Assembly (NCBI GenBank): GCA_946411935.1
Contig: CAMKFS010000001.1
Coordinates: 1 to 56,015 of the forward strand
From: an uncultured Candidatus Saccharibacteria bacterium
GTDB lineage: Bacteria; Patescibacteriota; Saccharimonadia; Saccharimonadales; Saccharimonadaceae
Direction: 5' to 3'
DNA: 56,015 bases
This document shows, piece by piece, positions 1-15,311 of this stretch (position 1 is the stretch's first letter; each line of letters starts with the position of its first letter). Made by a program: the position numbers and the translations under genes. The notes under the pieces were generated by a model, which saw only the letters and a list, made by a program, of their open reading frames with translations, ran no database searches and was not told the DNA's origin.

Positions 1-439
1 CGTAAAGAATCGTATCTTTGCCTTTCTTAACTTTGTTTGGATCACCCTGAGAGGTTGCATAGTTAATACCGCCGAGGATAATCATAACAACCGCAATCAT
101 ACCAATTACGAAGATAATCGTATTGATAATAACACTAATAACTGAGTTCAAATCATCGACTTCACACTTATCTGGATTCGAAACAATCGTTGCTGCCTGC
201 TGACAGTCTGCCGAAGTCTTACCATAAATTTTATTCTGTTTCGCATTCGTGCCAGTTCCCGTAGTGTAAGTAGTACAATACACCGGATATTTATCATCGG
301 CACCGATGTTCAGATTTGGATACTTTTTACCGCTACCCATACAATCCGAGAAGTTAGCCGCAAAAGTAGAGCCGGCAAAGACCGCTACTGCAAAGATTGC
401 GAGCACGCTACCTTTTAATACTTTACTAAATTTTTTCAT
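1..439 (-). CDS. VirB2/TrbC-like pilin paralog 1 (C-terminal end runs off the window)
   Basis: Absent from the ORF track because it has no stop in the window. ATG at 439-437 follows AAGGAGAAAAA. Hand translation: MKKFSKVLKGSVLAIFAVAVFAGS (signal peptide) ... MIILGGINYATSQGDPNKVKKGKDTILY, the same module as the four neighbouring paralogs. Confidence 0.6.
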   Translation of the reverse strand, partial: MKKFSKVLKGSVLAIFAVAVFAGSTFAANFSDCMGSGKKYPNLNIGADDKYPVYCTTYTTGTGTNAKQNKIYGKTSADCQQAATIVSNPDKCEVDDLNSVISVIINTIIFVIGMIAVVMIILGGINYATSQGDPNKVKKGKDTILY

Positions 440-510
440 TTTTTCTCCTTATTAAAGAAATCGTTAATAATATAATAACATATTTTTACGCTTAGCAACA
501 AGCAAAACCC

Positions 511-801
511 CTAGGCGCCTAGCGCTTTTAGTACAAAATTCACAATCACAAACGCCAACAGTGTAATAATCAAACCAATCACGCCATAAAGAATTGTATC
601 TTTTGCTTTCTTTACCTTGTTCGCATCACCCTGAGACATCATATAATTAATGCCGCCAATTATAATGATAATTACAGCAACAATACCGACGCCGTAAATA
701 ATCATATTGATTACTGCGCTCACATCCGATTCTAGCGATTCGCCCTCATTAGCCTTATTAACTTGATCCTTTATGCTATCCGCTACTATTCGCAAATCCA
801 T
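511..801 (-). CDS. VirB2/TrbC-like pilin paralog 2
   Basis: 96 aa. Two hydrophobic helices flank GGINYMMSQGDANKVKKAKDTILYGVIGLIITLLAFVIVNFV. AGGAG lies 5 nt upstream of the ATG. Confidence 0.6.
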   Translation of the reverse strand: MDLRIVADSIKDQVNKANEGESLESDVSAVINMIIYGVGIVAVIIIIIGGINYMMSQGDANKVKKAKDTILYGVIGLIITLLAFVIVNFVLKALGA

Positions 802-809
802 GCCTACTC

Positions 810-1202
810 CTATTTAATATTACTTAAGACAAAGTTCACAATCGCAAAGGCAAGAAGAACTATAACTAGACCAATCACCGCATATAGTATCGCACCCTTC
901 GCACGCTGTATTTTGCCGGGGTCACCCTGGGAGGTCATATATAATACGCCGCCAATAATAATTACGATTACAGCAATAATCGCAATCCATGTAAAAACTA
1001 TGTTCAAGATATTGCCAACACGATTCTGAGCTTCTGCTTCATTATTTTTGCCGTTGCCACAAATCAGCTCATAATTCGGATCATCTTTACCGCCTGACCA
1101 GTTATCGCAAGCTCCTTTATCGTCAGCATAGACAAGAGCCGGCGACGCACAGATGAGTAGAGAAGTAACCGCCGCTAAGATTATTCCAAATACTTTTTTC
1201 AT
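810..1202 (-). CDS. VirB2/TrbC-like pilin paralog 3
   Basis: 130 aa. Signal peptide MKKVFGIILAAVTSLLICASPALVYA and a Cys pair, then GGVLYMTSQGDPGKIQRAKGAILYAVIGLVIVLLAFAIVNFV. GGAGGAAAAA precedes the ATG. Confidence 0.6.
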   Translation of the reverse strand: MKKVFGIILAAVTSLLICASPALVYADDKGACDNWSGGKDDPNYELICGNGKNNEAEAQNRVGNILNIVFTWIAIIAVIVIIIGGVLYMTSQGDPGKIQRAKGAILYAVIGLVIVLLAFAIVNFVLSNIK

Positions 1203-1210
1203 TTTTCCTC

Positions 1211-1870
1211 CTATATTCCACTCACTACAGTATTAACGATCGCCGTTGCAAACAGCACGACTAAAAGACCAATTATTGAGTAGAGAATCGTAGTTTTCGC
1301 TTTTGCGATACCTTGCGGATTGCCGGTGCTCGTAACATATTGAATGCCGCCATAAACCACCATAATAACTGCAATAACGCCAGACCAGAGGAAAACCTTA
1401 TTAAAGATTTCTATAAAGAACTTATCCCCATGCGCCTTTGCGCCAGATACAATGTCGGCAATCACGCCACTAATAATTGAAGCCGACATCACAATAATAA
1501 GACCAATGACCGAATTAAAAATCGTCCTCTTACCTTTCGCAACTTTCGTCGGATCACCTTGGCCGAGCATATATTGAATACCGCCCCACATCACAAAGAG
1601 AATTGCTAGATAGCCTAAAATGCCGAGCACCATACTAACGATGTTTAAAGCCACCGTCCAGGCAAAACGCTTCACTTCGTCTTCATTGCCAGTATCCGGT
1701 GTTTGGACCTTACAGTCGCTATCAACTAAACCATCATACCAGGCTTTTAGTCCCATAAAGTGCGTCTCGCAGGTATAATCCGCCGCCGATACACTTTGAG
1801 TTGGCAGTGCAGCTATCGCCAATGTGCTCATTGCTACAATTGCCGTCAATATTTTAGCAATCTTTTTCAT
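1211..1870 (-). CDS. Tandem double VirB2/TrbC-like pilin (two hairpin modules in one protein)
   Basis: 219 aa with a signal peptide. The module occurs twice: WGGIQYMLGQGDPTKVAKGKRTIFNSVIGLIIVM and YGGIQYVTSTGNPQGIAKAKTTILYSIIGLLVVLFATAIVNTV. Confidence 0.6.
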   Translation of the reverse strand: MKKIAKILTAIVAMSTLAIAALPTQSVSAADYTCETHFMGLKAWYDGLVDSDCKVQTPDTGNEDEVKRFAWTVALNIVSMVLGILGYLAILFVMWGGIQYMLGQGDPTKVAKGKRTIFNSVIGLIIVMSASIISGVIADIVSGAKAHGDKFFIEIFNKVFLWSGVIAVIMVVYGGIQYVTSTGNPQGIAKAKTTILYSIIGLLVVLFATAIVNTVVSGI

Positions 1871-2670
1871 TCTTCATCCTCCATTGCGATCGTACGAATA
1901 ACCGTCGTTGTGCCGGACTCAAACTCAATCTTACCACTTTCAATGTCGCTAGAGCTCTTTGGTATAAACAGGTTCGCCAAGGCATATATTAATACCCAAG
2001 CAATAATACCAATCACAATTTCCATCATCCTTCGCTTTGCCGTAGCAACCTGATTCTCATTGTCGCGCGCCGTCATCCACATAACGCCACAGTAAATAAT
2101 CCCAATCGTACCCGCAACAATCACACCACCAGTCAAAACCGCAATTACTAGGCTCACGATTTCTTGAATACCAGACCCATCTTTACTAGAACACCAAGAA
2201 TTAGGAAGTAGAGAAGTACATGCGCCCTCGTCTACCTGTTCAATTTCAGTCGGAGGCGCATCGGCATACTCTCCACCATCCGACGAACTATCAGAGTCGG
2301 TCTTGCTATCAGAATCTTTTTTAGAGTCGTCACTATCGGAATCATCATCCGAAGAAGCTCCATCGATCCTAACCTTTACTTTTTTTGCAAAAGATGTTTT
2401 CCAGTTACTACAAGCCGTTGCATCAGTACCACCCACACAAGAAAGATATTTCTTAATTTGAGCTAAACAGCCATTCGAATCAACGTTACAAACGGATTTT
2501 AAAGAGTCATAACCTTCATCTTTTTTAATTTTTTCTGCACATTTGTCGGAAGTTATCTTTCCTTGATCGCATTGCGTCGATACGGCAAGCGCATTCTTAT
2601 CCGCTATCCCGACAACTGCACCAATAGCGCACACCGCCACCGCTATAAATATAAGTATTTTCTTTTTCAT
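1867..2670 (-). CDS. Pilin-like secreted/membrane protein with Cys-rich and Asp/Ser-rich N-terminal region
   Basis: 267 aa. Signal peptide, about 10 Cys, an SSDDDSDSDDSKKDSDSKTDSDSSSD tract, and a divergent C-terminal module CGVMWMTARDNENQVATAKRRMMEIVIGIIAWVLIYALANLF. Overlaps the next gene by 4 bp. Confidence 0.5.
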   Translation of the reverse strand: MKKKILIFIAVAVCAIGAVVGIADKNALAVSTQCDQGKITSDKCAEKIKKDEGYDSLKSVCNVDSNGCLAQIKKYLSCVGGTDATACSNWKTSFAKKVKVRIDGASSDDDSDSDDSKKDSDSKTDSDSSSDGGEYADAPPTEIEQVDEGACTSLLPNSWCSSKDGSGIQEIVSLVIAVLTGGVIVAGTIGIIYCGVMWMTARDNENQVATAKRRMMEIVIGIIAWVLIYALANLFIPKSSSDIESGKIEFESGTTTVIRTIAMEDEE

Positions 2671-2808
2671 ATCTCTTTTATTAACCTAAAACCATAAATT
2701 ATACCTTAATTATACGATAAAAATCGCCAAAAATACCATAAAAACTACCCCCGAGACCGCCAAAAGGGCAAAAAGACTCGAAAAATGCACATTTTCCCTA
2801 TATAATAC

Positions 2809-2837
2809 TTGACTAAAATGCTTATGTGTGCTATAAT
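2809..2837 (+). promoter_or_regulatory. Sigma-70-type promoter, TTGACT-17 bp-TATAAT
   Basis: TTGACT at 2809-2814 and TATAAT at 2832-2837 with exact 17-bp spacing. The ATG at 2847 is 9 nt after the -10 and has no SD, implying a leaderless mRNA. Confidence 0.55.
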
Positions 2838-2846
2838 AGTCTCGTT

Positions 2847-5831
2847 ATGGGCAAGTGTATTAAAAGCATCGCTCTATCTGTTATAACGGCCGTATTTGGC
2901 GTATTAGCACTATCCGGTCCGGTTTTTGCAACCCCGAATACCGCTAATGATAATAATAATGATTCGTCCGTCGTAACTGATCCAACCGATGCAGTCCCAG
3001 AAGACCAAAACGAAACTACCGAAAACGATTCAGAAAATAGCAGTGAAAACACAGAAGAGAATTCAGAAGATTCCGAAACTACTGCTAGTTGTTATGATCA
3101 GGTAGGTAGTCTTGGCTGGATTATTTGTCCGGGCGCCGGTTTATTCGGTAACATCATTGATGGCGCCTATAATATTTTGTCGAACGTAATTGATACCAAC
3201 CCTCTTCCAACAAACGAAGATTCTCCAATTTATATTACCTGGAATTATTTCAAAAACATCACCAACAGCGTCTTCATCGTCTTCTTCTTAATTATCATCC
3301 TATCTCAGTTAACCGGCTTCGGTATCAATAACTATGGCATCAAGAAAGCTCTCCCGCGCATCGTCATTGCCGCAATTCTTGCAAACCTTAGCTATATTAT
3401 CTGTATCCTAGCAGTCGACGTCAGCAATATCCTCGGTACCGGAATCTACGGCATCTTTACTTCTATTCAAAATACCGCAATTGAAAGTGGCGCTATCTCT
3501 AGCGCGGCCACCTCTTCGTCTGTTTCCGCAATTGTCGCTTCATTAATCGGTGTAGGCGCCGCAGGTGCAACCGTCGCCGCTGCCGCACTCACTTTTGGTA
3601 GCGTCGAGGGTATTATTTGGATGCTTCTACCTATCCTTCTTTCTGGCGCCATCGCCGTTATTTCGGCCCTTGTTACAATGGCCGCCCGTCAGGCGCTCAT
3701 CTTTATCTTAGTTATCATTGCACCACTCGCAATCATCGCATACATGCTTCCAAACACCGAAAAATATGCTAAAAAGTGGTTTGCGACACTTTTCCAGATG
3801 CTCGTCTTCTATCCGTCATTTGCCGTCCTTTATGGCGCTTCTCAGCTAGCTGGCCTTGTCATTATTACTTCCGCTACCCATTGGTGGACAGCGCTTCTCG
3901 GTATGGCAATCAAACTTCTTCCACTCTTCCTTTCGATTCCACTTATGCGCATGTCCGGCACTGTCCTTGGTAAGATCGACGGCCTCGTCCATCGCGCAAC
4001 TCACTCCGGTCAAAGCGCCTTCAATGGTCTCATGGGCGGAATGGCTGCCAATGCAAAGAGCAAACAGCTTTCAGGTGTCGGCCGCTTCAGAAACATGCCA
4101 TCCGCACGTCTTGCAAGATATCTCGATCGCAAACGCGCTCAACGTGAATTCGACATAAAAGAGCAGGAAGGCATGCGCAATCAACGCAACAATCTCTACG
4201 CGATGGATAGCTGGAAGAACCGCAATGGTAAATACAACCGACGCGGCATGCAGCATTATCAAAACATCCAGGAGAGCCTTGCTTTAGAGAATAGACGCAT
4301 CAACATCGAGAACGACTTCGACGAAGGCTTTACTGCCAATGATAAACGCGTCCACAAGAATGACCGCGCAAGGGTCAATCGCATTAATCGCGGTTTTGAT
4401 AAAGCTATCGTCGAAAACGAAGCCGTCAATGCTCGCAAGCAAGCCATTAACCTTGCAAATATGGAACATCGCGCTGAGTTAATCCATAAAAACGTCGAAG
4501 ACAAAACATCTGCTATTCATAAGCAAGTTCTTAATACGTTTAACATTGATGCCGCAGAGCTTAACGCAGTAAACGCAAAGCAAGCTGCTTGGGAAAATGC
4601 TACTAAGAAGCAGGAGATCCTCAACAAGCAAGCCGCCGGCGAAACTCTCTCGAACTCCGAAAAAGATTACCTCAAAACTGCTGGTTCTACTCTCACGGCA
4701 GCCGAAAAAGCCGCTATCGCTACTGGCGGTCTCACTGCCACCGAATACGCGCTTTATGATTCTGGTCAAAAGGCAATTAACTCCACGCTTCGTAGCGCTA
4801 TCTCTGCAAAGCGTAAAGTTGACCGCGAAACTCGCAGCAACTATGTCGAACTTTATGACGATTACGAAGCTGGTCCTCGTATTAAAGAGCAGCTCATCCG
4901 CGCCTTTAAGACGAAAGACTACAACTCAATGTCTGCCGCTCTCGAGATTATGTACAAGCGTGGCGATAAGGACGATATTGGTGACGTTCTTGCTAAGTTC
5001 TCTAGCGAAGTCGCCGACGATAAAGATATCCGCTTCCAGAAAGAGCTTAATGATATCTGTCTCACTATGAAGAGTGAGGATATCGACGTCGCACAGTGGG
5101 CAAAGGCTAATATGATGCGCCGCGGCATGAATGGTAAGGGCTTTAAAGTTCAATCATTCATTGATTACGAATCCTGGATGAGGGGCGACACGCTCGCTGG
5201 CGATGCAGTAGAGGGCGAAGATGATTACGGCAAAGTGCGCAAGACTTGCCGCATTGAGCTCGCTAACGCAATGAGTAGCTGGGATCCAATTGCTACCGCC
5301 GACCGTACCATGTGGAATCAAATGCTTGATGCGCAGAAAAACGGCATTCTTACAAAGAATAAAAACGGCGACGAGACTGTTACTGTATATCCAATCAAGT
5401 ATCTCCGCTCTGCAGTCTGTTCTGGTCGTATGGATGGTGAGCGCCTCGAATCATTCAATAAGTGGTTTACTGGTGGCTTTAAACGTGGCGGTACAAACGA
5501 AGATAATGCCTTCTTCTGGGCACACGAAGATGAGTACGTCGAGAATGTCGAGAAGTTCCTTGGCGAAATGTCAGCAAATCAGCTCGGCACACTTAAGACT
5601 GCAACCCTTGAAGCATTTAATAATGTCCTCCTCGAGCACTATGGTGAAAAAGATGAAGATGTCATTATCATAGGCGAAGGCGAGAAAAAGAAGGTCATTA
5701 GTAAATATCTACGCGATGCTCTTGAAACACAGATTACTCAGTTCAATACTGAGAAATCGATGGCAGGCCAGCGTACTGCTATGAACCCAGCCGTTCGCGA
5801 AATGCTTGGCATTAAAGACATCATTAAATAA
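2847..5831 (+). CDS. VirB6/TrbL-like polytopic membrane protein with long cytoplasmic C-terminal domain
   Basis: 994 aa from ATG 2847; the track's GTG at 2826 lies inside the promoter. Signal/anchor, an acidic N/D/E/S-rich tract, 6-7 predicted TM helices (aa ~150-400), then ~570 aa of charged, helix-rich sequence. Position is next to PrgI-like and VirB4 genes. Confidence 0.5.
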   Translation: MGKCIKSIALSVITAVFGVLALSGPVFATPNTANDNNNDSSVVTDPTDAVPEDQNETTENDSENSSENTEENSEDSETTASCYDQVGSLGWIICPGAGLFGNIIDGAYNILSNVIDTNPLPTNEDSPIYITWNYFKNITNSVFIVFFLIIILSQLTGFGINNYGIKKALPRIVIAAILANLSYIICILAVDVSNILGTGIYGIFTSIQNTAIESGAISSAATSSSVSAIVASLIGVGAAGATVAAAALTFGSVEGIIWMLLPILLSGAIAVISALVTMAARQALIFILVIIAPLAIIAYMLPNTEKYAKKWFATLFQMLVFYPSFAVLYGASQLAGLVIITSATHWWTALLGMAIKLLPLFLSIPLMRMSGTVLGKIDGLVHRATHSGQSAFNGLMGGMAANAKSKQLSGVGRFRNMPSARLARYLDRKRAQREFDIKEQEGMRNQRNNLYAMDSWKNRNGKYNRRGMQHYQNIQESLALENRRINIENDFDEGFTANDKRVHKNDRARVNRINRGFDKAIVENEAVNARKQAINLANMEHRAELIHKNVEDKTSAIHKQVLNTFNIDAAELNAVNAKQAAWENATKKQEILNKQAAGETLSNSEKDYLKTAGSTLTAAEKAAIATGGLTATEYALYDSGQKAINSTLRSAISAKRKVDRETRSNYVELYDDYEAGPRIKEQLIRAFKTKDYNSMSAALEIMYKRGDKDDIGDVLAKFSSEVADDKDIRFQKELNDICLTMKSEDIDVAQWAKANMMRRGMNGKGFKVQSFIDYESWMRGDTLAGDAVEGEDDYGKVRKTCRIELANAMSSWDPIATADRTMWNQMLDAQKNGILTKNKNGDETVTVYPIKYLRSAVCSGRMDGERLESFNKWFTGGFKRGGTNEDNAFFWAHEDEYVENVEKFLGEMSANQLGTLKTATLEAFNNVLLEHYGEKDEDVIIIGEGEKKKVISKYLRDALETQITQFNTEKSMAGQRTAMNPAVREMLGIKDIIK

Positions 5832-5848
5832 AACACAAAAACTCCCTG

Positions 5849-5877
5849 AAAAGAGCCGGACTTTCCGGCTCTTTTTC
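5849..5877 (+). terminator. Intrinsic terminator
   Basis: AAAAGAGCCGG / CCGGCTCTTTT stem with a 5-nt loop, running into a T tract, 18 nt after the stop at 5831. Confidence 0.65.
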
Positions 5878-5888
5878 TATTGTGATTA

Positions 5889-5897
5889 TGCTAAAAT
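5889..5897 (+). promoter_or_regulatory. Extended -10 promoter, TGcTAAAAT
   Basis: TGC at 5889-5891 and TAAAAT at 5892-5897. The ATG at 5904 is 6 nt downstream with no SD. Confidence 0.45.
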
Positions 5898-5903
5898 ATA
5901 AGT

Positions 5904-6950
5904 ATGGCTCAGTATAAGGTCCCACAAGATATTGAAGCTGATGATAAGCTCATCGGCCCTTTTAGCTTCCGCCAGTTTGTTTACTTAATTGTCGCTGCGG
6001 GCCTTGGTTTTGTTGCCTTTCTATTTTTTCAGATTTTTCCACTACTAGTTATTATTCCAATCCCATTCATCATCTTCTTAATCGTCCTTGCACTCCCTCT
6101 TAAAAAAGATCAGCCAATGGAGACTTATCTCTCGGCAATTGTAGACTTTTATCTCAAGCCTCAAAAACGCGTCTGGATGCCAGGGCAGGTCGAAAATACT
6201 ATTACAATCACGGCTCCAAAAAAGACTGAAGACAACCGCACAAAAAATCTTAGTCAAGAAGAAGCCGGCCGCCGCCTTTCATTCCTCGCCGATATTGTCG
6301 ATACTGAAGGTTACGCAATTAAAGACTCCAATCTTCGCGACGATATTGCTAGCGAAGCGGCCGCCACACAGGATATTTTCGAAACTAGCCAAACCTTTAA
6401 TATTGATCAGAATCTTGCTAGAAGCACCGAGAATCATCGCGCGCAGGTCGTCAATCAAATGCATACTGCTATTAATTCCGCACCTGCCGCTCCGCAAGCC
6501 GCCGAGCAAACTCCTCAACCGCCAGTTATTTCACCAGCTATCCCGGTCGCAGCTCCAACTCCTACTCCACCGCCGGCGCCAGACATCGAACATAGCGCCG
6601 CCACAATTCTGCCGGACATGAATCAGATTCAAAGTCTTTATTCGCAAGATAATCCTGCCGCAAATGCACTTGATGTCGCCCTAGAGTCAACCGATCCGGC
6701 TAATCCGAAAACAGAAGAAGCTAAACCGGAAACGGAGCCGCAGCCAGAACCAATTCCGCAACCAGAAGTGACATCACAACCAGAACCGGCCCCGCAGCCA
6801 GAGCCAGCACCTCAGCCAGAACCGGACGAAGCGTTAAAGAATCTAGCAAACAATTCCGATTTCTCAATCGAGACTATTGCAAAACAAGCAAAGCGTCTCG
6901 AAGAGAAAAAAGCAAAAGAAGATGGAGAAGTATATATTTCATTACATTAA
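5904..6950 (+). CDS. PrgI/VirB3-like T4SS membrane protein with long Pro-rich C-terminal extension
   Basis: The N-terminus YKVPQDIEADDKLIGPFSFRQFVYLIVAAGLGFVAFLFF plus a second TM matches the PrgI-family pattern as I recall it. The C-terminal ~170 aa are Pro/Glu/Gln-rich (PQPEPAPQPEPAPQPEP). Confidence 0.55.
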   Translation: MAQYKVPQDIEADDKLIGPFSFRQFVYLIVAAGLGFVAFLFFQIFPLLVIIPIPFIIFLIVLALPLKKDQPMETYLSAIVDFYLKPQKRVWMPGQVENTITITAPKKTEDNRTKNLSQEEAGRRLSFLADIVDTEGYAIKDSNLRDDIASEAAATQDIFETSQTFNIDQNLARSTENHRAQVVNQMHTAINSAPAAPQAAEQTPQPPVISPAIPVAAPTPTPPPAPDIEHSAATILPDMNQIQSLYSQDNPAANALDVALESTDPANPKTEEAKPETEPQPEPIPQPEVTSQPEPAPQPEPAPQPEPDEALKNLANNSDFSIETIAKQAKRLEEKKAKEDGEVYISLH

Positions 6951-6959
6951 GGAGTCAAC

Positions 6960-8000
6960 GTGCAACCAAATCAACCAAATCAACCATTAATGCCACCAAG
7001 CGCCGCCCCGCAACCGGCTCCACAGCCGATGCAGCCAGCGCCAACAACGGCAACACCTCAGCCTGCTGCGCCAACCGTTCAGGCTATGTCAACTGCTCAG
7101 CCTATGCCAGCCGCAACCCAGCCAGCTCAAGCAGCTATGCCAACCCCACAAATACAAACAATGCAAGCCCCTCAACAGGCCCCGCAAATGATGCCGTCAG
7201 CTGCTCAGCAGCCACAGCCGGTTCAAGCTGGTGCACGTCCAGCCCAAGCCGCTCAGCCGCAAGCAATGCAGAGCACTTCAACCAATTTGCGCGGCAACAA
7301 CCCAAACTCCGCACAATCAGCCCTCCTTATCTCCGAGCTTCGCGATTCCATGGTTATCATGAAAGACGGCTCTTTCCGTGCTGTAGTTGCTTGTAAGTCT
7401 ATTAACTTCGACCTCATGTCCGAAAGCGAACGTGAAGCCGTCGAGTTTGCTTACCAAAACTTCCTCAACTCCTTAACCTTCACTGTTCAAATCCTAATTC
7501 GCTCCCAGCGCGTCGATATTGCACCATATATCGATCGTTTGCTTGATCTTCGCCGCAAGAATGACAATATGCTTCTCGGCGTTTTGATGGACGATTATAT
7601 CGCCTTCATCGACGAGCTCTCCAAGGAAGCAAACATTATGGATAAGTCGTTCTTTGTCGTTATCCCTTACTATACGACAAAAGAAGCCGAGAAAGCCCTC
7701 GAGCAATCCAAGAACTTCTTCAAAACCTTCACAAAAGACAAAACTCCGCCGGTTACTCGCATCGATCGTGCCACCTACGACAAGGCTGTCACCGAGATGA
7801 ACAACCGCACTGAAGCCGTCATTTCTGGATTATTCCAAATCGGCATCCAATCCGTCCGCCTCAATACAAAGGAACTCGGTCAACTCTACTATAACTTTAA
7901 TAATCCAGACACTGCCGTCCGCGAACCACTCGGAGACTTTAATAAACTCGCACACCTCTACGTAAAGAAGGGAACACGCGATTCAGGGGAGGAGCAATAA
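6960..8000 (+). CDS. Pro/Gln-rich protein whose C-terminal ~220 aa resemble the N-terminal domain of monoderm VirB4 ATPases
   Basis: GTG start with AAGGAG 5 nt upstream. The first ~115 aa are P/Q/A-rich. MKDGSFRAVVACKSINFDLMSESEREAVEFAYQNFLNSLTFTVQILIRSQ then resembles the VirB4 (Tn916 ORF16/CD1110-type) N-domain. The stop is 1 nt before the VirB4 ATPase ORF. Confidence 0.4.
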   Translation: MQPNQPNQPLMPPSAAPQPAPQPMQPAPTTATPQPAAPTVQAMSTAQPMPAATQPAQAAMPTPQIQTMQAPQQAPQMMPSAAQQPQPVQAGARPAQAAQPQAMQSTSTNLRGNNPNSAQSALLISELRDSMVIMKDGSFRAVVACKSINFDLMSESEREAVEFAYQNFLNSLTFTVQILIRSQRVDIAPYIDRLLDLRRKNDNMLLGVLMDDYIAFIDELSKEANIMDKSFFVVIPYYTTKEAEKALEQSKNFFKTFTKDKTPPVTRIDRATYDKAVTEMNNRTEAVISGLFQIGIQSVRLNTKELGQLYYNFNNPDTAVREPLGDFNKLAHLYVKKGTRDSGEEQ

Positions 8001-8001
8001 T

Positions 8002-9792
8002 ATGGCAAAGAAACAGAAACAACTCAGCGCCGCAGATATCGCTGCGCAAGCTCAGCTTCAAGAAGAAGTTGAAATTCAGCGCGCGTTTGAAACCGGTATT
8101 ACTACGCTTCGCGATCTTATCTCGCCTTCAAGCCTCGAATTTCAGACCGACCATTTCCGCATTGGCACAAAATATGGACGCACAATCTATATCTATGGCT
8201 ACCCACGTGAACTCTATACTGGTTGGCTTAGCTCGATCATCAACATGGATGAAGTTCTGGATGTATCAATGTATATTTATCCAGCCGATTCTGCTGTCAT
8301 TATGAAAAACCTCACTAAAAAGGTTACTCAGCTCGAAGCGTCCATGGATATTAATAGCGAAAAAGGCAAAGTCCGTGACCCTGAGCTTGAAGCTGCCATC
8401 TCCGATGCTGAGGAACTCCGCGATCAGCTTCAGGTCGGCGCCGAACGCTTCTTCCGTTATGCGCTCTATATTACTATCTACGCAGATTCGCTCGATGAGC
8501 TTCAGTTTGTCCAGCACAAAATCGAAAATATCTTCGGTCAGCAAATGGTCTACACCAAGGTCGCCAGTTCGCAGCAAGAGCAGGGCATGAATAGTACGAT
8601 GCCGCAGTGTAGCGATCAGCTCCAAATCCGCCGCAACATGAATACAGGCGCTATCTCGACGAGCTTTCCATTCACTTCCGCAGACCTTACGCAGGAAAAA
8701 GGCATTCTTTACGGCATCAACATGCACAACAACGGCCTTGTAATTTTCGATCGCTTCTCCCTAGAAAATGCTAACATGGTCGTCTTCGCAAAATCTGGTG
8801 CAGGTAAATCCTATACTGTTAAGCTCGAAGCGCTTCGTTCAATGATGGTCGGAACCGAGGTCCTCATTATCGACCCAGAAAACGAGTATCAGAAACTTGC
8901 TGATGCCGTTGGCGGCTCCTATATTCGCCTTAGCCTCAACTCCGACGTCCGCATTAATCCATTCGACCTTCCAAAAGTTGTCGATGCCGAAGATGCCAAT
9001 GACGCACTCCGCGCTAATCTCGTTACGCTACATGGCCTCTTCCGCCTCATGCTTGGCGGTGGCGTTCTCAGCCCAAATGAAGAAGCGGATCTTGACCAAG
9101 CACTTATTGATACTTATGCTCGTGTTGGTATTACGAGCGATCCACTCACTCATACTGCACCTCCTCCAACCATCATTAATCTTTATGATACTCTCGAGCA
9201 TATGGGCGGTACTGGTCACAGTCTCGCACAGCGCCTCCGTAAATATACGACTGGTACATTCGCAGGTATCTTCTCTCAACAATCGAATATCGAAATTAAT
9301 AACCAGATGGTCGTCTTTAATATTCGCGACCTCGAGGACGAATTGCGCCCAGTTGCAATGTATATCGTCTTGAACCATATTTGGAATATTACTCGCGCCG
9401 ATCAACGCAAACGTATGCTCATCGTTGATGAGGCCTGGCAGCTAATGAAATACGAAGATTCAGCAAGCTTCCTCTTTAGCCTCGCAAAACGCGCCCGTAA
9501 ATATTATCTCGGCCTTACAACAATTACACAGGATGTTGAAGATTTCATGTCATCAAAGATGGGTCGCGCAATTGTTTCAAACTCATCCATGCAGCTACTT
9601 CTTAAACAATCCGCCTCTGCGGTCGACGTCTTGTCTGACGTTTTCAAACTTACAAACGAAGAGCGCAAACGTCTTTCAAGCTTCCCAGTCGGTCAAGGTC
9701 TCTTCTTTGCTGGCCAAAACCACGTCCATATTTCTATTGTCGCCAGCAATACTGAAGACGCCCTTATTACCACTAATCCAGGTGGCCAATAA
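8002..9792 (+). CDS. virB4: VirB4-family T4SS ATPase (ATPase portion)
   Basis: 596 aa. Walker A is FAKSGAGKSYT and Walker B is MLIVDEAWQL. The upstream segment LISPSSLEFQTDHFRIGTKYGRTIYIYGYPRELYTGWLS is typical of Gram-positive VirB4/PrgJ-type proteins. GGGGAGGAG SD. Confidence 0.8.
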   Translation: MAKKQKQLSAADIAAQAQLQEEVEIQRAFETGITTLRDLISPSSLEFQTDHFRIGTKYGRTIYIYGYPRELYTGWLSSIINMDEVLDVSMYIYPADSAVIMKNLTKKVTQLEASMDINSEKGKVRDPELEAAISDAEELRDQLQVGAERFFRYALYITIYADSLDELQFVQHKIENIFGQQMVYTKVASSQQEQGMNSTMPQCSDQLQIRRNMNTGAISTSFPFTSADLTQEKGILYGINMHNNGLVIFDRFSLENANMVVFAKSGAGKSYTVKLEALRSMMVGTEVLIIDPENEYQKLADAVGGSYIRLSLNSDVRINPFDLPKVVDAEDANDALRANLVTLHGLFRLMLGGGVLSPNEEADLDQALIDTYARVGITSDPLTHTAPPPTIINLYDTLEHMGGTGHSLAQRLRKYTTGTFAGIFSQQSNIEINNQMVVFNIRDLEDELRPVAMYIVLNHIWNITRADQRKRMLIVDEAWQLMKYEDSASFLFSLAKRARKYYLGLTTITQDVEDFMSSKMGRAIVSNSSMQLLLKQSASAVDVLSDVFKLTNEERKRLSSFPVGQGLFFAGQNHVHISIVASNTEDALITTNPGGQ

Positions 9793-9807
9793 TCAAAGCC
9801 CTTATCG

Positions 9808-9836
9808 TCGACATTTACGCCTAATTATTATATAAT
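9808..9836 (+). promoter_or_regulatory. Promoter, TCGACA-17 bp-TATAAT
   Basis: TCGACA at 9808-9813 and TATAAT at 9831-9836. The ATG at 9846 is 9 nt downstream with no SD. Confidence 0.45.
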
Positions 9837-9845
9837 TATGGTGAT

Positions 9846-12635
9846 ATGTCAGCCGACGAAACAGGTCAAAAATATCGGCAAGCACACGATCCATATAATG
9901 ATATGGAAGAGGCGGTTATTCGCCCAGCAAACATTGCTCGCCAAGAGCTTTCTGATGCCGAAGAAAATGCCGTAAAGCAGCCAAGTGCTAGCTCTAATTC
10001 TGATCGCTCATCTTCGTCTGACAACTCCAGAAATTATCAACGCCCATCCGACCGCGCCATCAATGCGCTGAATACTTTCGAGAAGAATCAGCTTAGCCAC
10101 ACTTTCCGCAATTCTGTTCGAGGCAACAACCGCAAATCATCTTCAAAAGTAACTACCAAAAACCAAAAAGGAGGATTTCTAAAACGACGTCTCGCCCCAA
10201 TTAGCTTAATTGCTTCGCTTCTTATTGGTGGCGGCGCCTTTTTCTACTTCACTCAATCATTTCTAGGCCCTCATCTTTCTAGCCTTTATACGAGTGCAAC
10301 CGACATCCAATTCACTTCATACAATTCACGCAATCAGCGCATCTTTAAATACATGCTCGACGGCGGCGATCAGGTAAAAATTAGTAAATTCTCCAAAAAA
10401 TACACAACTTTTTCTCCATATCTACAAAACCGACTCAAGAAAAACGGCATTGAGGTAGGCAAGATTGATGCTGATGGAAATTTTAAGTCAGGCTCGTTAG
10501 TTTCCACTTCAAAAACCGTCCTCAAATATAATGACGAAATAATCGACGCAAACTCTTTCCAAAACAAATTCGCTAGCGATGCTAATTTTCGCGACGCCTA
10601 TTATAAGGCAAAACGCGGGCGCATCGCCGGATTCTTTGATGATTCCGCCGACTATTTTTACAAAAAGAAGGGCGCCACTCGTGATATTTTTGATAAATAT
10701 CAATCTACCGGCGACGCCGAAGCAGACAAACAAAATTTCCAAGATATTGTTTCCGATCGCGTAACTGGCACCGAAGCCGACATTAACACTGTTAGTCATA
10801 CCAAAGACGAAGACGGGAACGATTCTGCCGCAAAAAATGGCGATGACGTTCAAACGAAAAACATCGTCGGCGACACCCCAGAAGCAAAAGCCCGCACAAT
10901 GGTTAATAATATTGCAGGTAAAGTTTCTAATGCGGGCGTCCCAATCTGCTCCGCGCTCCGCATCGCAAACATGGCAGCTGTCACCGTATCAGCCTATCAA
11001 ATCTTTCAATCAATTTCTTATTTCTTAAGTCTCATGGAACCAATCAGCAAAATGATGGCCGGAGAAGGGGATACTTCCGCCGTTAACGAAACACTTAACT
11101 TCCTTACTACCGAAACAAACAATGATGTTCAATACGTTGATTCTAGCGGCTCATCAACCACGAAAAGCGTTTATGGCTCACCCCTTCAATCGAGTGGCGC
11201 AAAATTAGTGCTTGGCGATACTCCATCATCATCCGAAGAAGTCGCTCCATATTCAATTAAAAACATCACTCGCGCCGCAACTACCATCGCAGTCAGTACT
11301 GGCGCAACCAACACAGTCTGCGACGGCGTAATGGCTGCTTCAGCTGTTATGTCACTCGCCTCGAACGCGGTTCCTGGTGGCACCCTCGCAAAATTTGTTG
11401 TTAGCGCCGTCGCTCAAACCGTTGGCGGTATTGCGCTTACCGGAATTGTTGCCGCAGTCGTTAATACCATCATTCCATATGTTGCAAAAATGTTTGCCAA
11501 TAATCTCTTCGAAAACTACACTGGTATTCCTGCCGGCGAGCAGTTTACTCAAGGCGCCGCAAGCTCCAACTTTAAACTTGCCACCCAATCAAGCGCTTAC
11601 ATGCCCGCTTCCGAAGATTACATAAAAGAACAGAATCGCCAAACCACCGTCGCTCTTGCCCAAGAAGCCGAAGTAGACCGCAGCAACCACGGCCCATTTG
11701 ATGCCTCCAATCGCCACACTTTCCTCGGTTCGCTTTTAACTAAATTCGCATTCCTTTCTCATTCAAACGGAATACTGAGTCAGGTATCAAACTTCGCAAC
11801 CACTTTAACCAACTCTCTAAATATCTTCAATCCAGCCGCCTCCGCCTATGACGAAGAAATATCCTATACTTCAAATTACAGCGATTGTACTAATGCGCTT
11901 TCCGATACAGTCTGCGAAATGTATGACCAAGAAATTGTAGCTATGGATTATTCAACTATCGACTTAAGTCCAGATGATCCAACCTATGTTTCTGTCATTG
12001 AGCCAAATCTTGACGACAACGGCGACATCAGAGAAGATTCAGAACTAGCAAAATTCATTAATGTTTGTACGGAGCGTGAGTCTCCATGGGGCGTAGTAGA
12101 TGCTGGCATCATGAACGCTCTTCAAACCGATCTCGGAATCGTCGGGAATAATCTCCCAATCATTAACGATGCAATCGATATTATTAACGCCGCAGAGGAT
12201 ATCGCAAACAGGCCTTGGGGAACTGGTGAAAACTGTAAAATGTCGAAAGAAAACCCTCGTTGGGATACAGAATTCAAATACTATCAACGCTACATTGAAG
12301 ACATGCGCATTATTAGTGGCATGGATGACGAAGAAGATTCTAATCCGGTCCTCGCTTATAAAAATAACTATTATGATAAACACCCACTTGATAACTCTTT
12401 CACTGGCACGCTTGCACGTATTTCTGGCCAATCTAAGGACGATATCGCATTCTTAATGGAATACGTCAATTATTCTACAAAAATCGCAAACTACAACCCA
12501 TCCACTCGCTTATCATTTATAGGACAATCTGAGGCAAAACATATTTCCTTCACCGAAGAAACAATGCCAGAAGCCATCGCATTCGTTGCTAAACAGCCAG
12601 AATTATTTATCGATCGAAGGAACTATACTGTATGA
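9846..12635 (+). CDS. Large membrane protein of unknown function, paralog A (paralog B at 36393-39626)
   Basis: 929 aa. Polar, Ser-rich N-terminus, a TM helix at aa ~118-140, Ala/Gly/Val-rich hydrophobic segments at aa ~480-560, and a conserved C-terminal ~330 aa shared with the 1077-aa ORF. Confidence 0.6.
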   Translation: MSADETGQKYRQAHDPYNDMEEAVIRPANIARQELSDAEENAVKQPSASSNSDRSSSSDNSRNYQRPSDRAINALNTFEKNQLSHTFRNSVRGNNRKSSSKVTTKNQKGGFLKRRLAPISLIASLLIGGGAFFYFTQSFLGPHLSSLYTSATDIQFTSYNSRNQRIFKYMLDGGDQVKISKFSKKYTTFSPYLQNRLKKNGIEVGKIDADGNFKSGSLVSTSKTVLKYNDEIIDANSFQNKFASDANFRDAYYKAKRGRIAGFFDDSADYFYKKKGATRDIFDKYQSTGDAEADKQNFQDIVSDRVTGTEADINTVSHTKDEDGNDSAAKNGDDVQTKNIVGDTPEAKARTMVNNIAGKVSNAGVPICSALRIANMAAVTVSAYQIFQSISYFLSLMEPISKMMAGEGDTSAVNETLNFLTTETNNDVQYVDSSGSSTTKSVYGSPLQSSGAKLVLGDTPSSSEEVAPYSIKNITRAATTIAVSTGATNTVCDGVMAASAVMSLASNAVPGGTLAKFVVSAVAQTVGGIALTGIVAAVVNTIIPYVAKMFANNLFENYTGIPAGEQFTQGAASSNFKLATQSSAYMPASEDYIKEQNRQTTVALAQEAEVDRSNHGPFDASNRHTFLGSLLTKFAFLSHSNGILSQVSNFATTLTNSLNIFNPAASAYDEEISYTSNYSDCTNALSDTVCEMYDQEIVAMDYSTIDLSPDDPTYVSVIEPNLDDNGDIREDSELAKFINVCTERESPWGVVDAGIMNALQTDLGIVGNNLPIINDAIDIINAAEDIANRPWGTGENCKMSKENPRWDTEFKYYQRYIEDMRIISGMDDEEDSNPVLAYKNNYYDKHPLDNSFTGTLARISGQSKDDIAFLMEYVNYSTKIANYNPSTRLSFIGQSEAKHISFTEETMPEAIAFVAKQPELFIDRRNYTV

Positions 12636-14410
12636 AAAAAATAATTATCAGCTTCTTTGCCGCTCTCATGTTTTGTCAGCCGGTTTTTGCCACAATTCCA
12701 AGCGATAATATTCTCGATTATTTCGACAAAAACGGTATTTACTATTACAACCCCGACGGCAGCAACGATCTCTGCAATTCGTCAGCCACTACCTTGGCCG
12801 GCTCCGATGTTCCTGAAAAAATTTGGAATTTCTACATTAGTGAAGGCTTTACTGATGCCCAAGTGGCCGGCATTCTCGGAAATGGCATGGCAGAAACCGG
12901 AAACGAACCAACCCGCGCAAGCAACTCTACTTATTGGGGTCTCTTCCAATGGAGCTATGGTCGCAAAGAAAAACTCTTCGCAAAATTCCGCGAAGCCGGA
13001 CTCGAGAAATACACCTCTTCTGAATATTGGGGCGTTGGCGGCTATAAGAAAATTCCAGAAGCCGACCTCGATAATCTCCTTAGAATTGAGTTAGAAGATA
13101 CCCTTACTGATAATTTATTTGATTGGCAAGGTGAATTAAAGAAACAAAACCAACCTGAAGCTGCTGCAGAAGTATTTCTAACACTATTTGAACGCGCCGT
13201 CGGCGGCTCTGATACGATCATTTATTACGCACCATTTGTCGGTGTAAAATACCAAGCCGCAAGCAAGCGCCGCGAATACGCACGCGAGTATTACGACAAA
13301 TACTCTGGAAAAGGAACCGTTTCTAGCGGTAGTACAAATGCTGCCGAAAATGGTAAAAATTTGAGCATTATTGGCGACTCTATTACTTATGGATCCACAA
13401 TCCAAATTCTCGAAAAATTCTCAGATTTATCCTCTGACAATATTAATGCTAAAAATGGTCGCTCTTGGAAAGAGGGAATTGAAATTGCTAAATCCACAAA
13501 CCTAAAAGATAATGTAATTTTTGCGCTTGGAACTAACTCCCGGGATTTAACTGATGCTCAAATTAGTGATGCTATAAACGCAATTGGCACAAACAAGAAA
13601 ATCGTTTTCGTTACTAATTACAGCAAATCAAATAGCGAAACCTACGATAGTAATAATGAAAAATTCCTCAGCTTTGCAAAGAAAAACTCAAATATTATCG
13701 TAGCGGACTGGAAAAATACTGTTAATAAAAATCCAGACACTTATATGGCCGACGACGTCCATCCAAACGATGCCGGTAAAACTCTTTTTGCCGAAACTCT
13801 CTATGACGCAATTAATAGTAATACTAACGAAAATGGCTGTAGTGTAAGCGGAGAATTCACTTCGCTCGTCAAAGCCTACGCTTGGCCAGAATACCACAAA
13901 GCCCCATTTACTAATCGTATGCCTGATTACGCCGAAGCAGTTACAACTTCAATTAGCGAAGGCCGATACGTTGGCGGTTCCATTAATGGCGTCCCAGGTA
14001 TTGACTGCGGCGGCTTCGTTACGATTCTCGCTCAAAATTCCGGACTTGCCTCCGATTATAACGACACAAAAGGTAACACTGATACTCAAGAAAGCTGGGT
14101 AAAAAGCCATAACTGGACACTTCTAAACTCATCAACATCAACGCCAGTTGACACCAGCATTCTCCAAGCTGGCGATGTCGCTTTCACTAACGGACACACC
14201 TTTATTTATGTCGGAGAAATTGAAGGCTTTGATTCGAATATCGCATCCGCATCCTACGGCAACAGTTCCGCTCGCGCACCTATGGCAGGACACGAAAGTT
14301 TAATTTCCGGTAATGGTACTACCGTTCGCTGGTATCGTAAACCAGATTTTTCAACTAATAACGGTACTTCATATAAAACAAATTTAGAGAATAAAGTCTA
14401 TGGCAAATAA
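12632..14410 (+). CDS. Secreted three-domain cell-wall hydrolase: lysozyme-like + SGNH esterase + NlpC/P60- or CHAP-like peptidase
   Basis: Signal peptide. AGILGNGMAETGNEP...WGLFQWS is a phage-tail-lysozyme-type motif. SGNH blocks are IIGDSITYGS, FALGTNS and DDVHPNDAG. The C-terminus has GIDCGGFV (Cys) and GDVAFTNGHTFIYVG (His). The start overlaps the upstream stop (ATGA). Confidence 0.7.
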   Translation: MKKIIISFFAALMFCQPVFATIPSDNILDYFDKNGIYYYNPDGSNDLCNSSATTLAGSDVPEKIWNFYISEGFTDAQVAGILGNGMAETGNEPTRASNSTYWGLFQWSYGRKEKLFAKFREAGLEKYTSSEYWGVGGYKKIPEADLDNLLRIELEDTLTDNLFDWQGELKKQNQPEAAAEVFLTLFERAVGGSDTIIYYAPFVGVKYQAASKRREYAREYYDKYSGKGTVSSGSTNAAENGKNLSIIGDSITYGSTIQILEKFSDLSSDNINAKNGRSWKEGIEIAKSTNLKDNVIFALGTNSRDLTDAQISDAINAIGTNKKIVFVTNYSKSNSETYDSNNEKFLSFAKKNSNIIVADWKNTVNKNPDTYMADDVHPNDAGKTLFAETLYDAINSNTNENGCSVSGEFTSLVKAYAWPEYHKAPFTNRMPDYAEAVTTSISEGRYVGGSINGVPGIDCGGFVTILAQNSGLASDYNDTKGNTDTQESWVKSHNWTLLNSSTSTPVDTSILQAGDVAFTNGHTFIYVGEIEGFDSNIASASYGNSSARAPMAGHESLISGNGTTVRWYRKPDFSTNNGTSYKTNLENKVYGK

Positions 14411-15311
14411 GAAAAAGAGTTTTCCAAAAAATTTAAAAATTAGAATTGCTCTAGTAGCCAGTCTTCTCGCAATTATTATCATCTATTCAGTCGCCACACT
14501 AATTTATCGAGCAGGGAAAACCAGAGTATTTATCCAGATAGCTCCAAATGACGCCGTCATAACATTAAACGACACTCGTGTTGGTAATAAAAGCGAGTGT
14601 TGGCTCACTCCGGGGAATTATCACCTCGTCGCCACGAGTAACGAACATCTTGCGGTTTACGAACGAGATTTTGAAGTTAAAAACGAATCATTAAAAATTT
14701 ATGCCACTCTTAGTGCTATTGATGATGAAGGAAAAGATTTCATCGAAAAACATCGCCAAGAATACGCTGTAGTTGAAGGCTTAATTGGCGACCAGTTAAA
14801 TAGCGAGGGCGAAAAGGAACGCGAAGCAAACCCTATTCTTAATCATCTTCCAATTAATAACTCGCTTTATTCGATTAGCTATGAATATGACAATAATAAT
14901 CAATTAATAATCAATATAAAGTCCGAACTAAAATATCTCGATGTTGCTGTAGAAAAATTAAAAACCTTCAAAGATGTAAGTATTAGCTCTCTAAACATCG
15001 TTTTCCACAGTAAAAATACTTTTGAACAATTTAATGACAACGATAATTCAGACATAATCCAATTCATTAAAACCGCCTACAATTTACCTAATAATTACAA
15101 AATAAATGAAATTAAACAGTTAAATGACTATTATTACACGACGGTATATATTGATGACTATAATAATAACCTCCAATATGCTCACTACCGAATTATTCTG
15201 AAACAAAAAGGCGAGAGCTGGGAAGTGATCTCAAGCCCTCAACCAATCCTCACTACTTTTAATACACCAAACGTCGCTAAAGATATTCTCGATATTATAA
15301 ATTCATATTAG
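14400..15311 (+). CDS. Membrane-anchored protein with PEGA-like domain
   Basis: 303 aa. N-terminal TM helix IALVASLLAIIIIYSVATLIY, then VFIQIAPNDAVITLNDTRVGNKSECWLTPGNYHLVATSNEHLAVYERDFEV (PEGA-like pattern). Very AT-rich and Asn-rich. Overlaps the upstream gene by 11 bp. Confidence 0.4.
   Translation: MANKKKSFPKNLKIRIALVASLLAIIIIYSVATLIYRAGKTRVFIQIAPNDAVITLNDTRVGNKSECWLTPGNYHLVATSNEHLAVYERDFEVKNESLKIYATLSAIDDEGKDFIEKHRQEYAVVEGLIGDQLNSEGEKEREANPILNHLPINNSLYSISYEYDNNNQLIINIKSELKYLDVAVEKLKTFKDVSISSLNIVFHSKNTFEQFNDNDNSDIIQFIKTAYNLPNNYKINEIKQLNDYYYTTVYIDDYNNNLQYAHYRIILKQKGESWEVISSPQPILTTFNTPNVAKDILDIINSY

Follow-up and report, generated by a model that had tools for sequence, protein, structure and literature searches.

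The DNA under study is a 56,015-nt stretch from an uncultured Saccharibacterium (the window), and its first part, positions 1-15311, is the locus of interest. The locus encodes proteins resembling those of type IV secretion systems (T4SSs), with an array of minus-strand pilin genes diverging, across a 176-bp intergenic region (2671-2846), from a plus-strand block of seven genes (Table 1). All seven plus-strand open reading frames (ORFs) were present in the ORF list at the coordinates tabulated. Families were assigned using Pfam and NCBIfam profiles, sequence and profile searches against the Protein Data Bank (PDB), AlphaFold2 models and Foldseek searches against the PDB. Part of a 95-kb metagenomic contig, L001, has the same sequence as the window (0 mismatches over 11.2 kb); this contig supplied the sequence to the left of the window start, with gene families there taken from precomputed Pfam assignments.

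To place the locus among its relatives, one genome per species was scanned, and 588 genomic loci were found to encode VirB4 relatives. The comparisons among loci use the best 80 of these 588 (VirB4 80-99% identical), whose labels are almost all Saccharibacteria, Nanosyncoccaceae or Saccharimonadales, a few having another taxon or none. Guts of ruminants and other animals are the source of most of these 80 relatives, and the nearest relative is a metagenome-assembled genome from sheep jejunum. The source organism is a ruminant-gut Saccharibacterium that is Nanosyncoccaceae-like.

A T4SS-like core, a wall module and a pilin array

The best-defined component is the VirB4 ATPase, which scored 388.9 bits against NF045971, the CD1110 family of conjugative VirB4 proteins (cutoff 325). 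By sequence its closest PDB entry was the VirB4 of a Firmicute, Thermoanaerobacter (4AG5, 2e-46), with diderm TrwK at 4e-5. The alignment covers positions 172-732 of the 752 in NF045971, leaving the protein without the usual N-terminal ~170 residues. The TrsD-like protein encoded immediately upstream had no match among PDB sequences and aligned to positions 18-179 of TIGR00929 and 103-254 of NF045975, both N-terminal parts of VirB4. Just 1 nt separates its stop codon from the virB4 ATG, a Shine-Dalgarno-like GGAGG sits within its 3' end, and the same gene is directly upstream of virB4 in all 80 relatives. Because the two proteins match consecutive, non-overlapping parts of VirB4 profiles and are encoded 1 nt apart, VirB4 is split into two conserved genes, one for a TrsD-like N-domain protein and one for the ATPase.

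Upstream of this pair, the PrgI/VirB3-like protein matched PF12666 with 54.1 bits (cutoff 27) and ends in a tail encoded by an 18-bp tandem repeat (6738-6825; PQPEPA, 4.9 copies), the sole tandem repeat found. The TrsD-like protein begins with ~110 residues of P/Q/A-rich low complexity (6960-7290), and the lengths of both proteins differ widely among relatives. Domains of VirB7, VirB9, VirB10 and VirB11 were found in no protein of the locus. Judged by its sequences, the machine is predicted to descend from monoderm (MPF-FATA) conjugation machinery.

The first gene of the block encodes a 994-aa VirB6-like protein composed of a signal or anchor helix, an acidic exported stretch, 6-8 transmembrane (TM) helices at about residues 140-375 and a cytoplasmic tail of ~620 aa. 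Its own match to TrbL/VirB6 was weak (E 0.09), and TrbL was the only family to recur among its orthologues (7 of 27, best E 1.5e-4, all under the gathering score). A profile built from the 27 orthologues returned only low-complexity noise from PDB sequences. Invariant residues occur only in the TM domain, the tail being hypervariable.

The three downstream genes form a putative wall module that starts with a 929-aa membrane protein without matches in Pfam, NCBIfam or PDB profile searches. Its AlphaFold2 model was poor (mean predicted local distance difference test (pLDDT) score 56.9), and Foldseek found no PDB match to it at E<=1e-3. The family is large (1,295 cluster representatives at E<=1e-3), and among 148 close homologues none is functionally named (a few are called 'hypothetical protein') and one carries a precomputed Pfam domain, CHAP. 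In some relatives, CHAP, SGNH or calcineurin-like phosphoesterase domains are inserted in the C-terminal third. These inserted enzyme domains suggest that the 929-aa protein is an extracytoplasmic scaffold tied to envelope remodelling.

The second wall gene encodes a secreted hydrolase with a clear Phage_lysozyme2 domain (1.9e-19) and weak GDSL/SGNH and NlpC/P60 matches, both of which recur across the hydrolase family; the SGNH part weakly matched PDB 6vjp, deposited as 'Acetyltransferase'. Catalytic domains are shuffled within this family, with Phage_lysozyme2 in 25 of 40 members, GDSL in 12, CHAP and NlpC/P60 in 8 each and glucosaminidase in 7, followed by C39-like (4), VanY (2), amidase_3 (1) and M23 (1). 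The last gene encodes a 303-aa protein whose confident model shows a TM helix (10-37), a beta-sandwich (41-103), a helical hairpin and two small alpha/beta domains. The protein itself had no Pfam match, and its C-terminal domain had weak NTF2-like or cystatin-like Foldseek matches (E 0.1-0.5 over 44-60 residues). The designation PEGA-like is justified because the sandwich resembles small Ig-like/PEGA-type sandwiches, among them 3e8v, which is listed as template for the PEGA protein SEML1_0005 of Southlakia epibionticum (Wang et al. 2023, PMC10633639), and because two homologues carry PF08308 PEGA. Hydrolase and anchored-protein families occur in most related loci, often as duplicated hydrolase-anchor cassettes.

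Two promoter-like sites lie 9 nt before the start codons of the VirB6-like and 929-aa genes (Table 1). They are consensus matches only, the best (11/12 each) in 19.5 kb, in a scan that was not enriched overall (50 sites vs 43.9 +/- 6.5 in shuffles), and their placement suggests a core unit followed by a separately transcribed wall unit.

Five pilin genes within the window and two just outside it (128 and 138 aa) bring the array to at least seven, with paralogues 19-69% identical pairwise. The genes at 511-801, 810-1202 and 1211-1870 each matched TrbC/VirB2 as well as PF18895. The 170-aa gene cut by the window start is complete on L001 (10764-11276; PF18895), and the two halves of the 219-aa double pilin are 41% identical to each other. 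The 267-aa protein combines a signal peptide, a Cys-rich region, a Ser/Asp-rich acidic linker and a C-terminal pilin hairpin, and is lineage-restricted, being seen in 10 of 79 relatives. The 96-aa pilin and the 128-aa pilin (L001 11363-11749) have no obvious N-terminal signal peptide, unlike their paralogues, so that either their start codons are miscalled or they use a different insertion route.

The 130-aa and 219-aa pilins passed the cutoff of NF045849 (50.8 and 41.8 bits vs 40), and the 267-aa protein fell under it (1.1e-6). NF045849 is the Mbov_0395 'pilin-like conjugal transfer protein' family of Mycoplasma integrative and conjugative elements (ICEs). Since two pilins pass it, hairpin proteins of the VirB2-like type also occur outside diderm systems. 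The monoderm ancestor may already have carried the pilins, with the Mycoplasma match serving as a lead only.

At the far end of the array, about 1.4-1.9 kb beyond window position 1, lies an Hsp20 gene (L001 11835-12341) that holds the same position in 54 related loci and in S. epibionticum (SEML1_0020). SEML1_0020 was scored essential, and the published papers leave Hsp20 outside the T4SS; it could be a conserved neighbor or a pilin holdase.

An earlier note, made from the sequence alone, had mapped the seven plus-strand genes as diverging from the pilin array, and both the ORF list and the family scans agree with that map. Its PrgI/VirB3-like protein, VirB4 N-domain-like ORF, VirB4 ATPase, three-domain wall hydrolase and PEGA-like anchored protein were all recovered by the matches described above. 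Two of its statements needed adjustment. The VirB6/TrbL-like protein is polytopic and has a weak TrbL match, as proposed, with a tail slightly longer than the ~570 aa suggested. The pilins, which had been called a diderm feature, are indeed VirB2-like, but a strictly diderm label is too strong given the Mycoplasma (monoderm MPF-FATA) family matches.

Table 1. Features of the locus and its origin-side boundary (window coordinates; aa, amino acids)
Feature	Position	Strand	Basis or remark
VirB2-like pilin gene, 170 aa, 5' part	1..440	-	start codon at 440; runs off window start
T4SS pilin, 96 aa, two-helix hairpin	511..801	-	PF18895 8.5e-10
T4SS pilin with signal peptide, 130 aa	810..1202	-	PF18895 5e-13, TrbC 6e-7
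Protein with two tandem pilin domains, 219 aa	1211..1870	-	PF18895 1.4e-23 in two stretches
Pilin-like protein, 267 aa	1867..2670	-	weaker match: TrbC 3.8e-5, PF18895 2.3e-3
Promoter-like site TTGACT-17-TGcTATAAT	2809..2837	+	consensus match; 9 nt before VirB6-like start codon
VirB6-like polytopic membrane protein, extended, 994 aa	2847..5831	+	weak TrbL match, hydropathy, position
PrgI/VirB3-like protein, 348 aa, Pro-rich repetitive C-terminal tail	5904..6950	+	PF12666 2.4e-14
TrsD-like protein, 346 aa, counterpart of a detached VirB4 N-terminal domain	6960..8000	+	NF041427 TrsD 6e-9; precomputed PF26593 TraC-like
VirB4 ATPase, 596 aa	8002..9792	+	NF045971, P-loop_TraG 1.9e-28; Walker A GAGKS, Walker B IVDEAW
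Promoter-like site TCGACA-17-TATAAT	9808..9836	+	consensus match; 9 nt before 929-aa gene
Membrane protein, 929 aa, no family	9846..12635	+	same position as SEML1_0007
Secreted wall hydrolase, 592 aa	12632..14410	+	lysozyme-like, SGNH/GDSL esterase-like and NlpC/P60-like domains
Bitopic PEGA-like anchored protein, 303 aa	14400..15311	+	AlphaFold2 pLDDT 91.9, Foldseek, homologues
recF	15295-16320	-	Pfam; boundary, outside machine
dnaN	16320-17423	-	Pfam; boundary, outside machine
DnaA-box cluster	17476-17675		dnaN-dnaA spacer
dnaA	17677-19053	-	Pfam; boundary, outside machine
DnaA-box cluster	19088-19206		upstream of dnaA

Chromosomal setting and conservation among relatives

On its right, the locus runs directly into replication genes, with the 303-aa gene and recF overlapping convergently (15295-15311). 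A DnaA-box search gave 25 matches where 11.7 were expected, and 12 fall in the stretch from 16.8 to 19.2 kb; because they cluster around dnaA, the locus ends ~2 kb from oriC. Given the five DnaA-box matches in the dnaN-dnaA spacer and its poor conservation, an 82-aa ORF there (17436-17684, minus strand) is probably not a gene. The plus-strand T4SS block (2847-15311) is transcribed towards oriC (17476-19206) and thus head-on to the leftward replication fork, an orientation that is the same in Southlakia and unusual for essential genes. The pilin genes and recF-dnaN are co-directional with that fork, and GC skew is negative over 1-18 kb.

Mobility genes were sought in the window and the 9.2 kb further left, 65 kb in total, using the genes of the locus itself, ORFs of at least 119 aa to its right and precomputed Pfam assignments to its left. 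No relaxase, VirD4/TcpA, VirB11 or integrase/recombinase domain was found in these ORFs, the sole TrwB-type match being noise inside RecF (E 0.066), and no flanking direct repeat exceeded 13 bp. Left of the window, L001 carries two more pilin genes, Hsp20, one more pilin gene, a gene for a 670-aa surface protein and two small ORFs, followed by groEL/groES and a Big_2 protein gene.

Among the 80 species-level relatives, the order of minus-strand pilins followed by plus-strand VirB6-like, PrgI, TrsD and VirB4 genes was kept wherever the locus extended far enough. The downstream context varied, with recF-dnaN(-dnaA) in 37 loci, dnaJ-rny in 31 and neither in 2, the remaining 10 being too short. 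Proximity to the origin is therefore not universal, as 31 of 70 informative relatives have dnaJ-rny downstream compared to 37 with recF/dnaN. Of the 37 recF-context loci, 31 have the 929-aa family next to the core, compared to 0 of the 31 dnaJ-rny loci. Three dnaJ-rny loci (L030 15880-17541, L041 and L077) carry large serine recombinase genes 3' of rny; these are probably unrelated mobile-element insertions outside the T4SS.

The components of the locus differ widely in their rates of change. Median identity to the 79 other species was 82.6% for VirB4, 66% for TrsD, 46.5% for PrgI, 37.7% for the VirB6-like protein and 35-55% for the pilins, and in the wall module it was 33.6% for the 929-aa protein and 37% for both the hydrolase and the 303-aa protein. 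The housekeeping proteins DnaN, RecF and DnaA gave 57%, 56% and 47%. VirB4 identity is inflated because the loci were picked by VirB4 similarity, yet the paired contrast within genomes still holds, with VirB4 ahead of both DnaN and DnaA in identity at each of the 33 loci that encode all three. Recent horizontal spread does not explain this conservation, since the adjacent PrgI and VirB6-like proteins are far more diverged.

The comparison to the nearest species gave the same picture, with VirB4 99.5% identical despite saturated synonymous divergence. Nonsynonymous divergence (dN, NG86) was 0.004 for VirB4, compared to 0.047 for DnaN, 0.078 for RecF, 0.115 for the VirB6-like protein and 0.15-0.39 for the pilins. 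Because synonymous divergence (dS) was saturated throughout these pairwise estimates (at least 1.0, and undefined for two genes), they give no usable evidence of dN/dS >1 in the pilins.

Further right of the origin lie rnpA, yidC, genes for a LytR-family protein, RNase H and S20, and a long cell-envelope glycan cluster. The LytR_cpsA_psr protein (21578-23371, plus strand) has a weak N-terminal match to PF14283, a CD1107-like mobile-element family (7.9e-5, 23.0 bits vs cutoff 26). The close numbering of CD1107 and CD1110, the locus tag of the VirB4 family, may point to a common C. difficile element. A 795-aa protein (33350-35737, minus strand) with seven LGFP repeats (3.5e-60) is a candidate host-wall binder; the LGFP repeat binds cell walls and is typical of Actinobacteria, to which the known hosts of cultivated Saccharibacteria belong. 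Two further possible surface proteins are a 1077-aa protein without a Pfam match (36393-39626, plus strand) and a 600-aa protein with a MucBP domain (52047-53849, plus strand). An Rfam scan of the whole window found two tRNAs and nothing else.

A probable chromosomal secretion system and its alternatives

We consider the locus to be, very probably, the chromosomal T4SS of Saccharibacteria in an uncultivated ruminant-gut member, as opposed to a mobile element. The housekeeping flanks (Hsp20/groESL to the left, recF-dnaN-dnaA/oriC to the right), the lack of mobility genes and att-like repeats in the scanned 65 kb, and the conserved synteny support a predicted apparatus that is fixed and non-conjugative. 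Transposon sequencing (Tn-seq) showed the collinear genes SEML1_0006-0019 of S. epibionticum to be essential when it grows on its actinobacterial host (Wang et al. 2023, PMC10633639). Essentiality is a result for Southlakia only, and the strong VirB4 constraint seen here is consistent with it.

These results also bear on the broader claims of the earlier note. It had preferred a fixed, non-conjugative apparatus to an ICE, pointing to the absence of a coupling ATPase, VirB11, relaxase, integrase or flanking repeat and to the direct junction with recF-dnaN-dnaA, and both observations were borne out by the scans and by the boundary with its DnaA-box clusters. Its guess of an epibiotic Saccharibacterium was right, in line with the taxon labels of the best 80 relatives. 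Its idea of a host-interface machine matches the essentiality published for the collinear S. epibionticum locus, so that the Tn-seq experiment it proposed already exists, and the synteny check it called for found the core order kept across relatives.

In such a machine, the TrsD-like protein and VirB4 would dock on PrgI and on the membrane channel of the VirB6-like protein. The wall module would open the wall of the epibiont itself and possibly that of the host, and VirB4 would pull Sec-inserted pilins from the membrane and polymerize them into a pilus or conduit reaching the host cell. The machine would act on the host without a dedicated coupling protein, and its cargo could be exported effectors or imported host molecules.

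Several points weigh against this interpretation. VirB6 was assigned from sub-threshold matches together with topology and position, no sequence match to a VirB8-like NTF2-fold protein was found in the locus, and none was securely identified. To our knowledge, pili of Patescibacteria have never been visualized, nor has any substrate been reported. The correspondence to Southlakia was judged by gene order, sizes and domain annotation, with the sequences unaligned. The 65 kb scanned are a fraction of a genome estimated at <1 Mb, so a type IV coupling protein (T4CP) or relaxase could sit elsewhere. VirD4-like genes in Patescibacteria do lie mostly far from virB4, and one of them, in S. epibionticum, is non-essential (Quinonero-Coronel et al. 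2025, PMC12102498).

The same distant VirD4-like genes, found in many Patescibacteria, would suit a domesticated or still-active ICE whose relaxase, T4CP and integrase are encoded elsewhere in the genome and whose job is DNA transfer. VirB4 passes the cutoff of a conjugative-transposon VirB4 family, and all recognizable parts of the machine have conjugative homologues. We rejected the ICE as a description of this locus, as no flanking repeat >13 bp and no integrase, relaxase, T4CP or other mobility gene occurs in the 65 kb, and its position is fixed between housekeeping genes in 80 species. Relaxases are known from only 103 Patescibacteria genomes, and S. epibionticum can do without its T4CP homologue but not without the T4SS (PMC12102498), making this alternative extremely unlikely. 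A DNA-uptake machine like Helicobacter ComB or archaeal Ced, supplying host nucleotides or genes, would meet the need of Saccharibacteria, which are unable to make nucleotides. ComB-type systems also work without a coupling protein and relaxase, and VirB4 weakly matches CedB (2e-13) and CedD (2.6e-7), far below cutoff. We find DNA uptake very unlikely. Competence of S. epibionticum needs comEC and type IV pili, and comEC deletion abolishes transformation with viability unaffected, as far as the passage of the 2025 review citing Wang et al. 2023 reports it (PMC12857230); on that account, what makes the T4SS essential is something other than DNA import linked to ComEC.

The locus might also build only a surface filament for adhesion or host recognition, translocating nothing, with the pilin paralogues providing host-range or antigenic flexibility. 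The divergence of its seven or more pilin genes, their place among the fastest-evolving parts, the adhesin-like Cys-rich and SD-rich extension of the lineage-specific pilin and the absence of a coupling protein from the scanned ORFs would all suit a filament. Adhesion of Saccharibacteria has already been attributed to type IV pili, however, and the extended VirB6-like channel protein with its large cytoplasmic tail and the extreme constraint on VirB4 would suit an active translocon no less well, so we regard a filament alone as unlikely.

Returning to the chromosomal T4SS, a more specific version of it can be proposed, which we consider possible but rather doubtful. A near-frozen VirB4 motor, with dN/dS of about 0.004 and stronger conservation than DnaN or DnaA, would be joined to a fast, modular, host-facing shell that sets host range, comprising the pilin paralogues, the VirB6 tail, the shuffled hydrolase-anchor cassettes and the 929-aa scaffold. 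The machine would act as a T4CP-independent conduit via a VirB2-type pilus on a monoderm envelope, with pilins inherited from an MPF-FATA ancestor and not from diderms. If true, the conduit would take molecules from the host cell or inject them into it. More generally, the T4SS is currently the leading candidate for the machine with which epibiotic Saccharibacteria, like Patescibacteria at large, make use of their host cells.

Comparison with known systems

Among the systems compared are diderm machines. Like the Ptl system of Bordetella and the VirB system of Brucella, the machine would need no coupling protein, and in those systems substrates can be Sec-exported first. They differ in being built around a VirB7/9/10 core, components that were not detected here. 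The ICEs of Mycoplasma and the locus are both minimal monoderm systems, and two pilins here pass the cutoff for the family of Mbov_0395 pilin-like proteins. The VirB4 scored 277.8 bits on the Mycoplasma ICE VirB4 model (Mbov_0397), under its cutoff of 590. Unlike the locus, those elements are mobile, carry a T4CP gene (CDS5) and lack a wall module. The FEMS review calls Mycoplasma CDS15 VirB3-like, not a pilin (PMC12857230).

MPF-FATA conjugative T4SSs, such as Prg of pCF10, Trs of pGO1, CD1110 of C. difficile CTn2 and ICEBs1 with CwlT, share the CD1110-family VirB4, PrgI and TrsD. Their hydrolases pair a muramidase with an endopeptidase, a CwlT/PrgK logic that the hydrolase here follows, and neither has an outer-membrane core. 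The locus differs from them in its fixed chromosomal location, in having no relaxase, T4CP, oriT or integrase that we found, and in its VirB2-like pilin array, split VirB4 and extended VirB6-like protein.

A close counterpart is the T4SS of Southlakia ML1 (SEML1_0004/0006-0019), which is collinear from dnaA-dnaN-recF to Hsp20 and has the same orientation relative to the origin. The shared order runs from anchored beta-sandwich protein(s) through a multi-domain lysozyme/peptidase, a ~1,000-aa membrane protein, VirB4, a ~300-aa TrsD-like protein, PrgI and a ~1,000-aa VirB6-like protein with a helical-repeat tail to the pilin array and Hsp20. That cluster likewise contains neither a coupling protein nor a relaxase. 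The two systems show minor differences. Southlakia has two VirB6-like genes (SEML1_0011/0013) flanking a gene for an NTF2-like, TraM/VirB8-like protein with a twin-arginine translocation (TAT) signal, whereas a single VirB6-like gene takes their place here and no such NTF2-like gene is present. The 267-aa extended pilin occupies the side where Southlakia has the TAT/NTF2-like and second VirB6-like genes. Southlakia also encodes two small anchored proteins (0004 and 0005) compared to the single 303-aa protein, an SGNH domain stands where the Southlakia hydrolase has its second lysozyme-like domain, and the 929-aa protein is without the C-terminal DD-peptidase domain annotated in SEML1_0007.

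The system itself has already been published (2020-2025), and all elements of the earlier note's interpretation are found in four papers (PMC7427843, PMC10633639, PMC12102498 and PMC12857230). McLean et al. 2020 (PMC7427843) reported that a T4SS region encoding an array of small secreted proteins, first noted in TM7x, is conserved in Saccharibacteria. Wang et al. 2023 (PMC10633639) reported a Gram-positive-like composition, a pilin array and no coupling or relaxase proteins. Quinonero-Coronel et al. 2025 (PMC12102498) surveyed Patescibacteria and placed their VirB4 clade within MPF-FATA, with TrsD, PrgI and VirB6, VirB2 arrays of 2-11 genes and proximity to dnaA/dnaN/rnpA. The 2025 review (PMC12857230) recognized a new T4SS subgroup, called it the first T4SS shown to be essential to its own bacterium, and speculated on a pilus conduit.

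Measured against the clade described in PMC12102498 and PMC7427843, the locus shows no categorical difference, sharing a VirB4 of MPF-FATA affinity, TrsD next to VirB4, PrgI, a VirB2 array, the absence of a relaxase, in the ORFs scanned here, and proximity to dnaA; their VirB6 homologues would correspond to the VirB6-like protein. What the present analysis adds is incremental: constraint on VirB4 far above that on DnaN and DnaA, a fast wall module with its own promoter-like site, alternative recF-dnaA and dnaJ-rny contexts with the 929-aa family in the first only, the synteny of Hsp20, and the pilin match to Mycoplasma ICEs. The constraint data, the two contexts, the co-occurrence of the 929-aa family and the Hsp20 synteny were not found in PMC12102498 or PMC7427843. 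The frozen, variable and co-travelling parts thus distinguished offer comparative handles for mutagenesis and structural work in cultivable species. The locus is no new kind of system; it extends the same architecture to ruminant-gut lineages.

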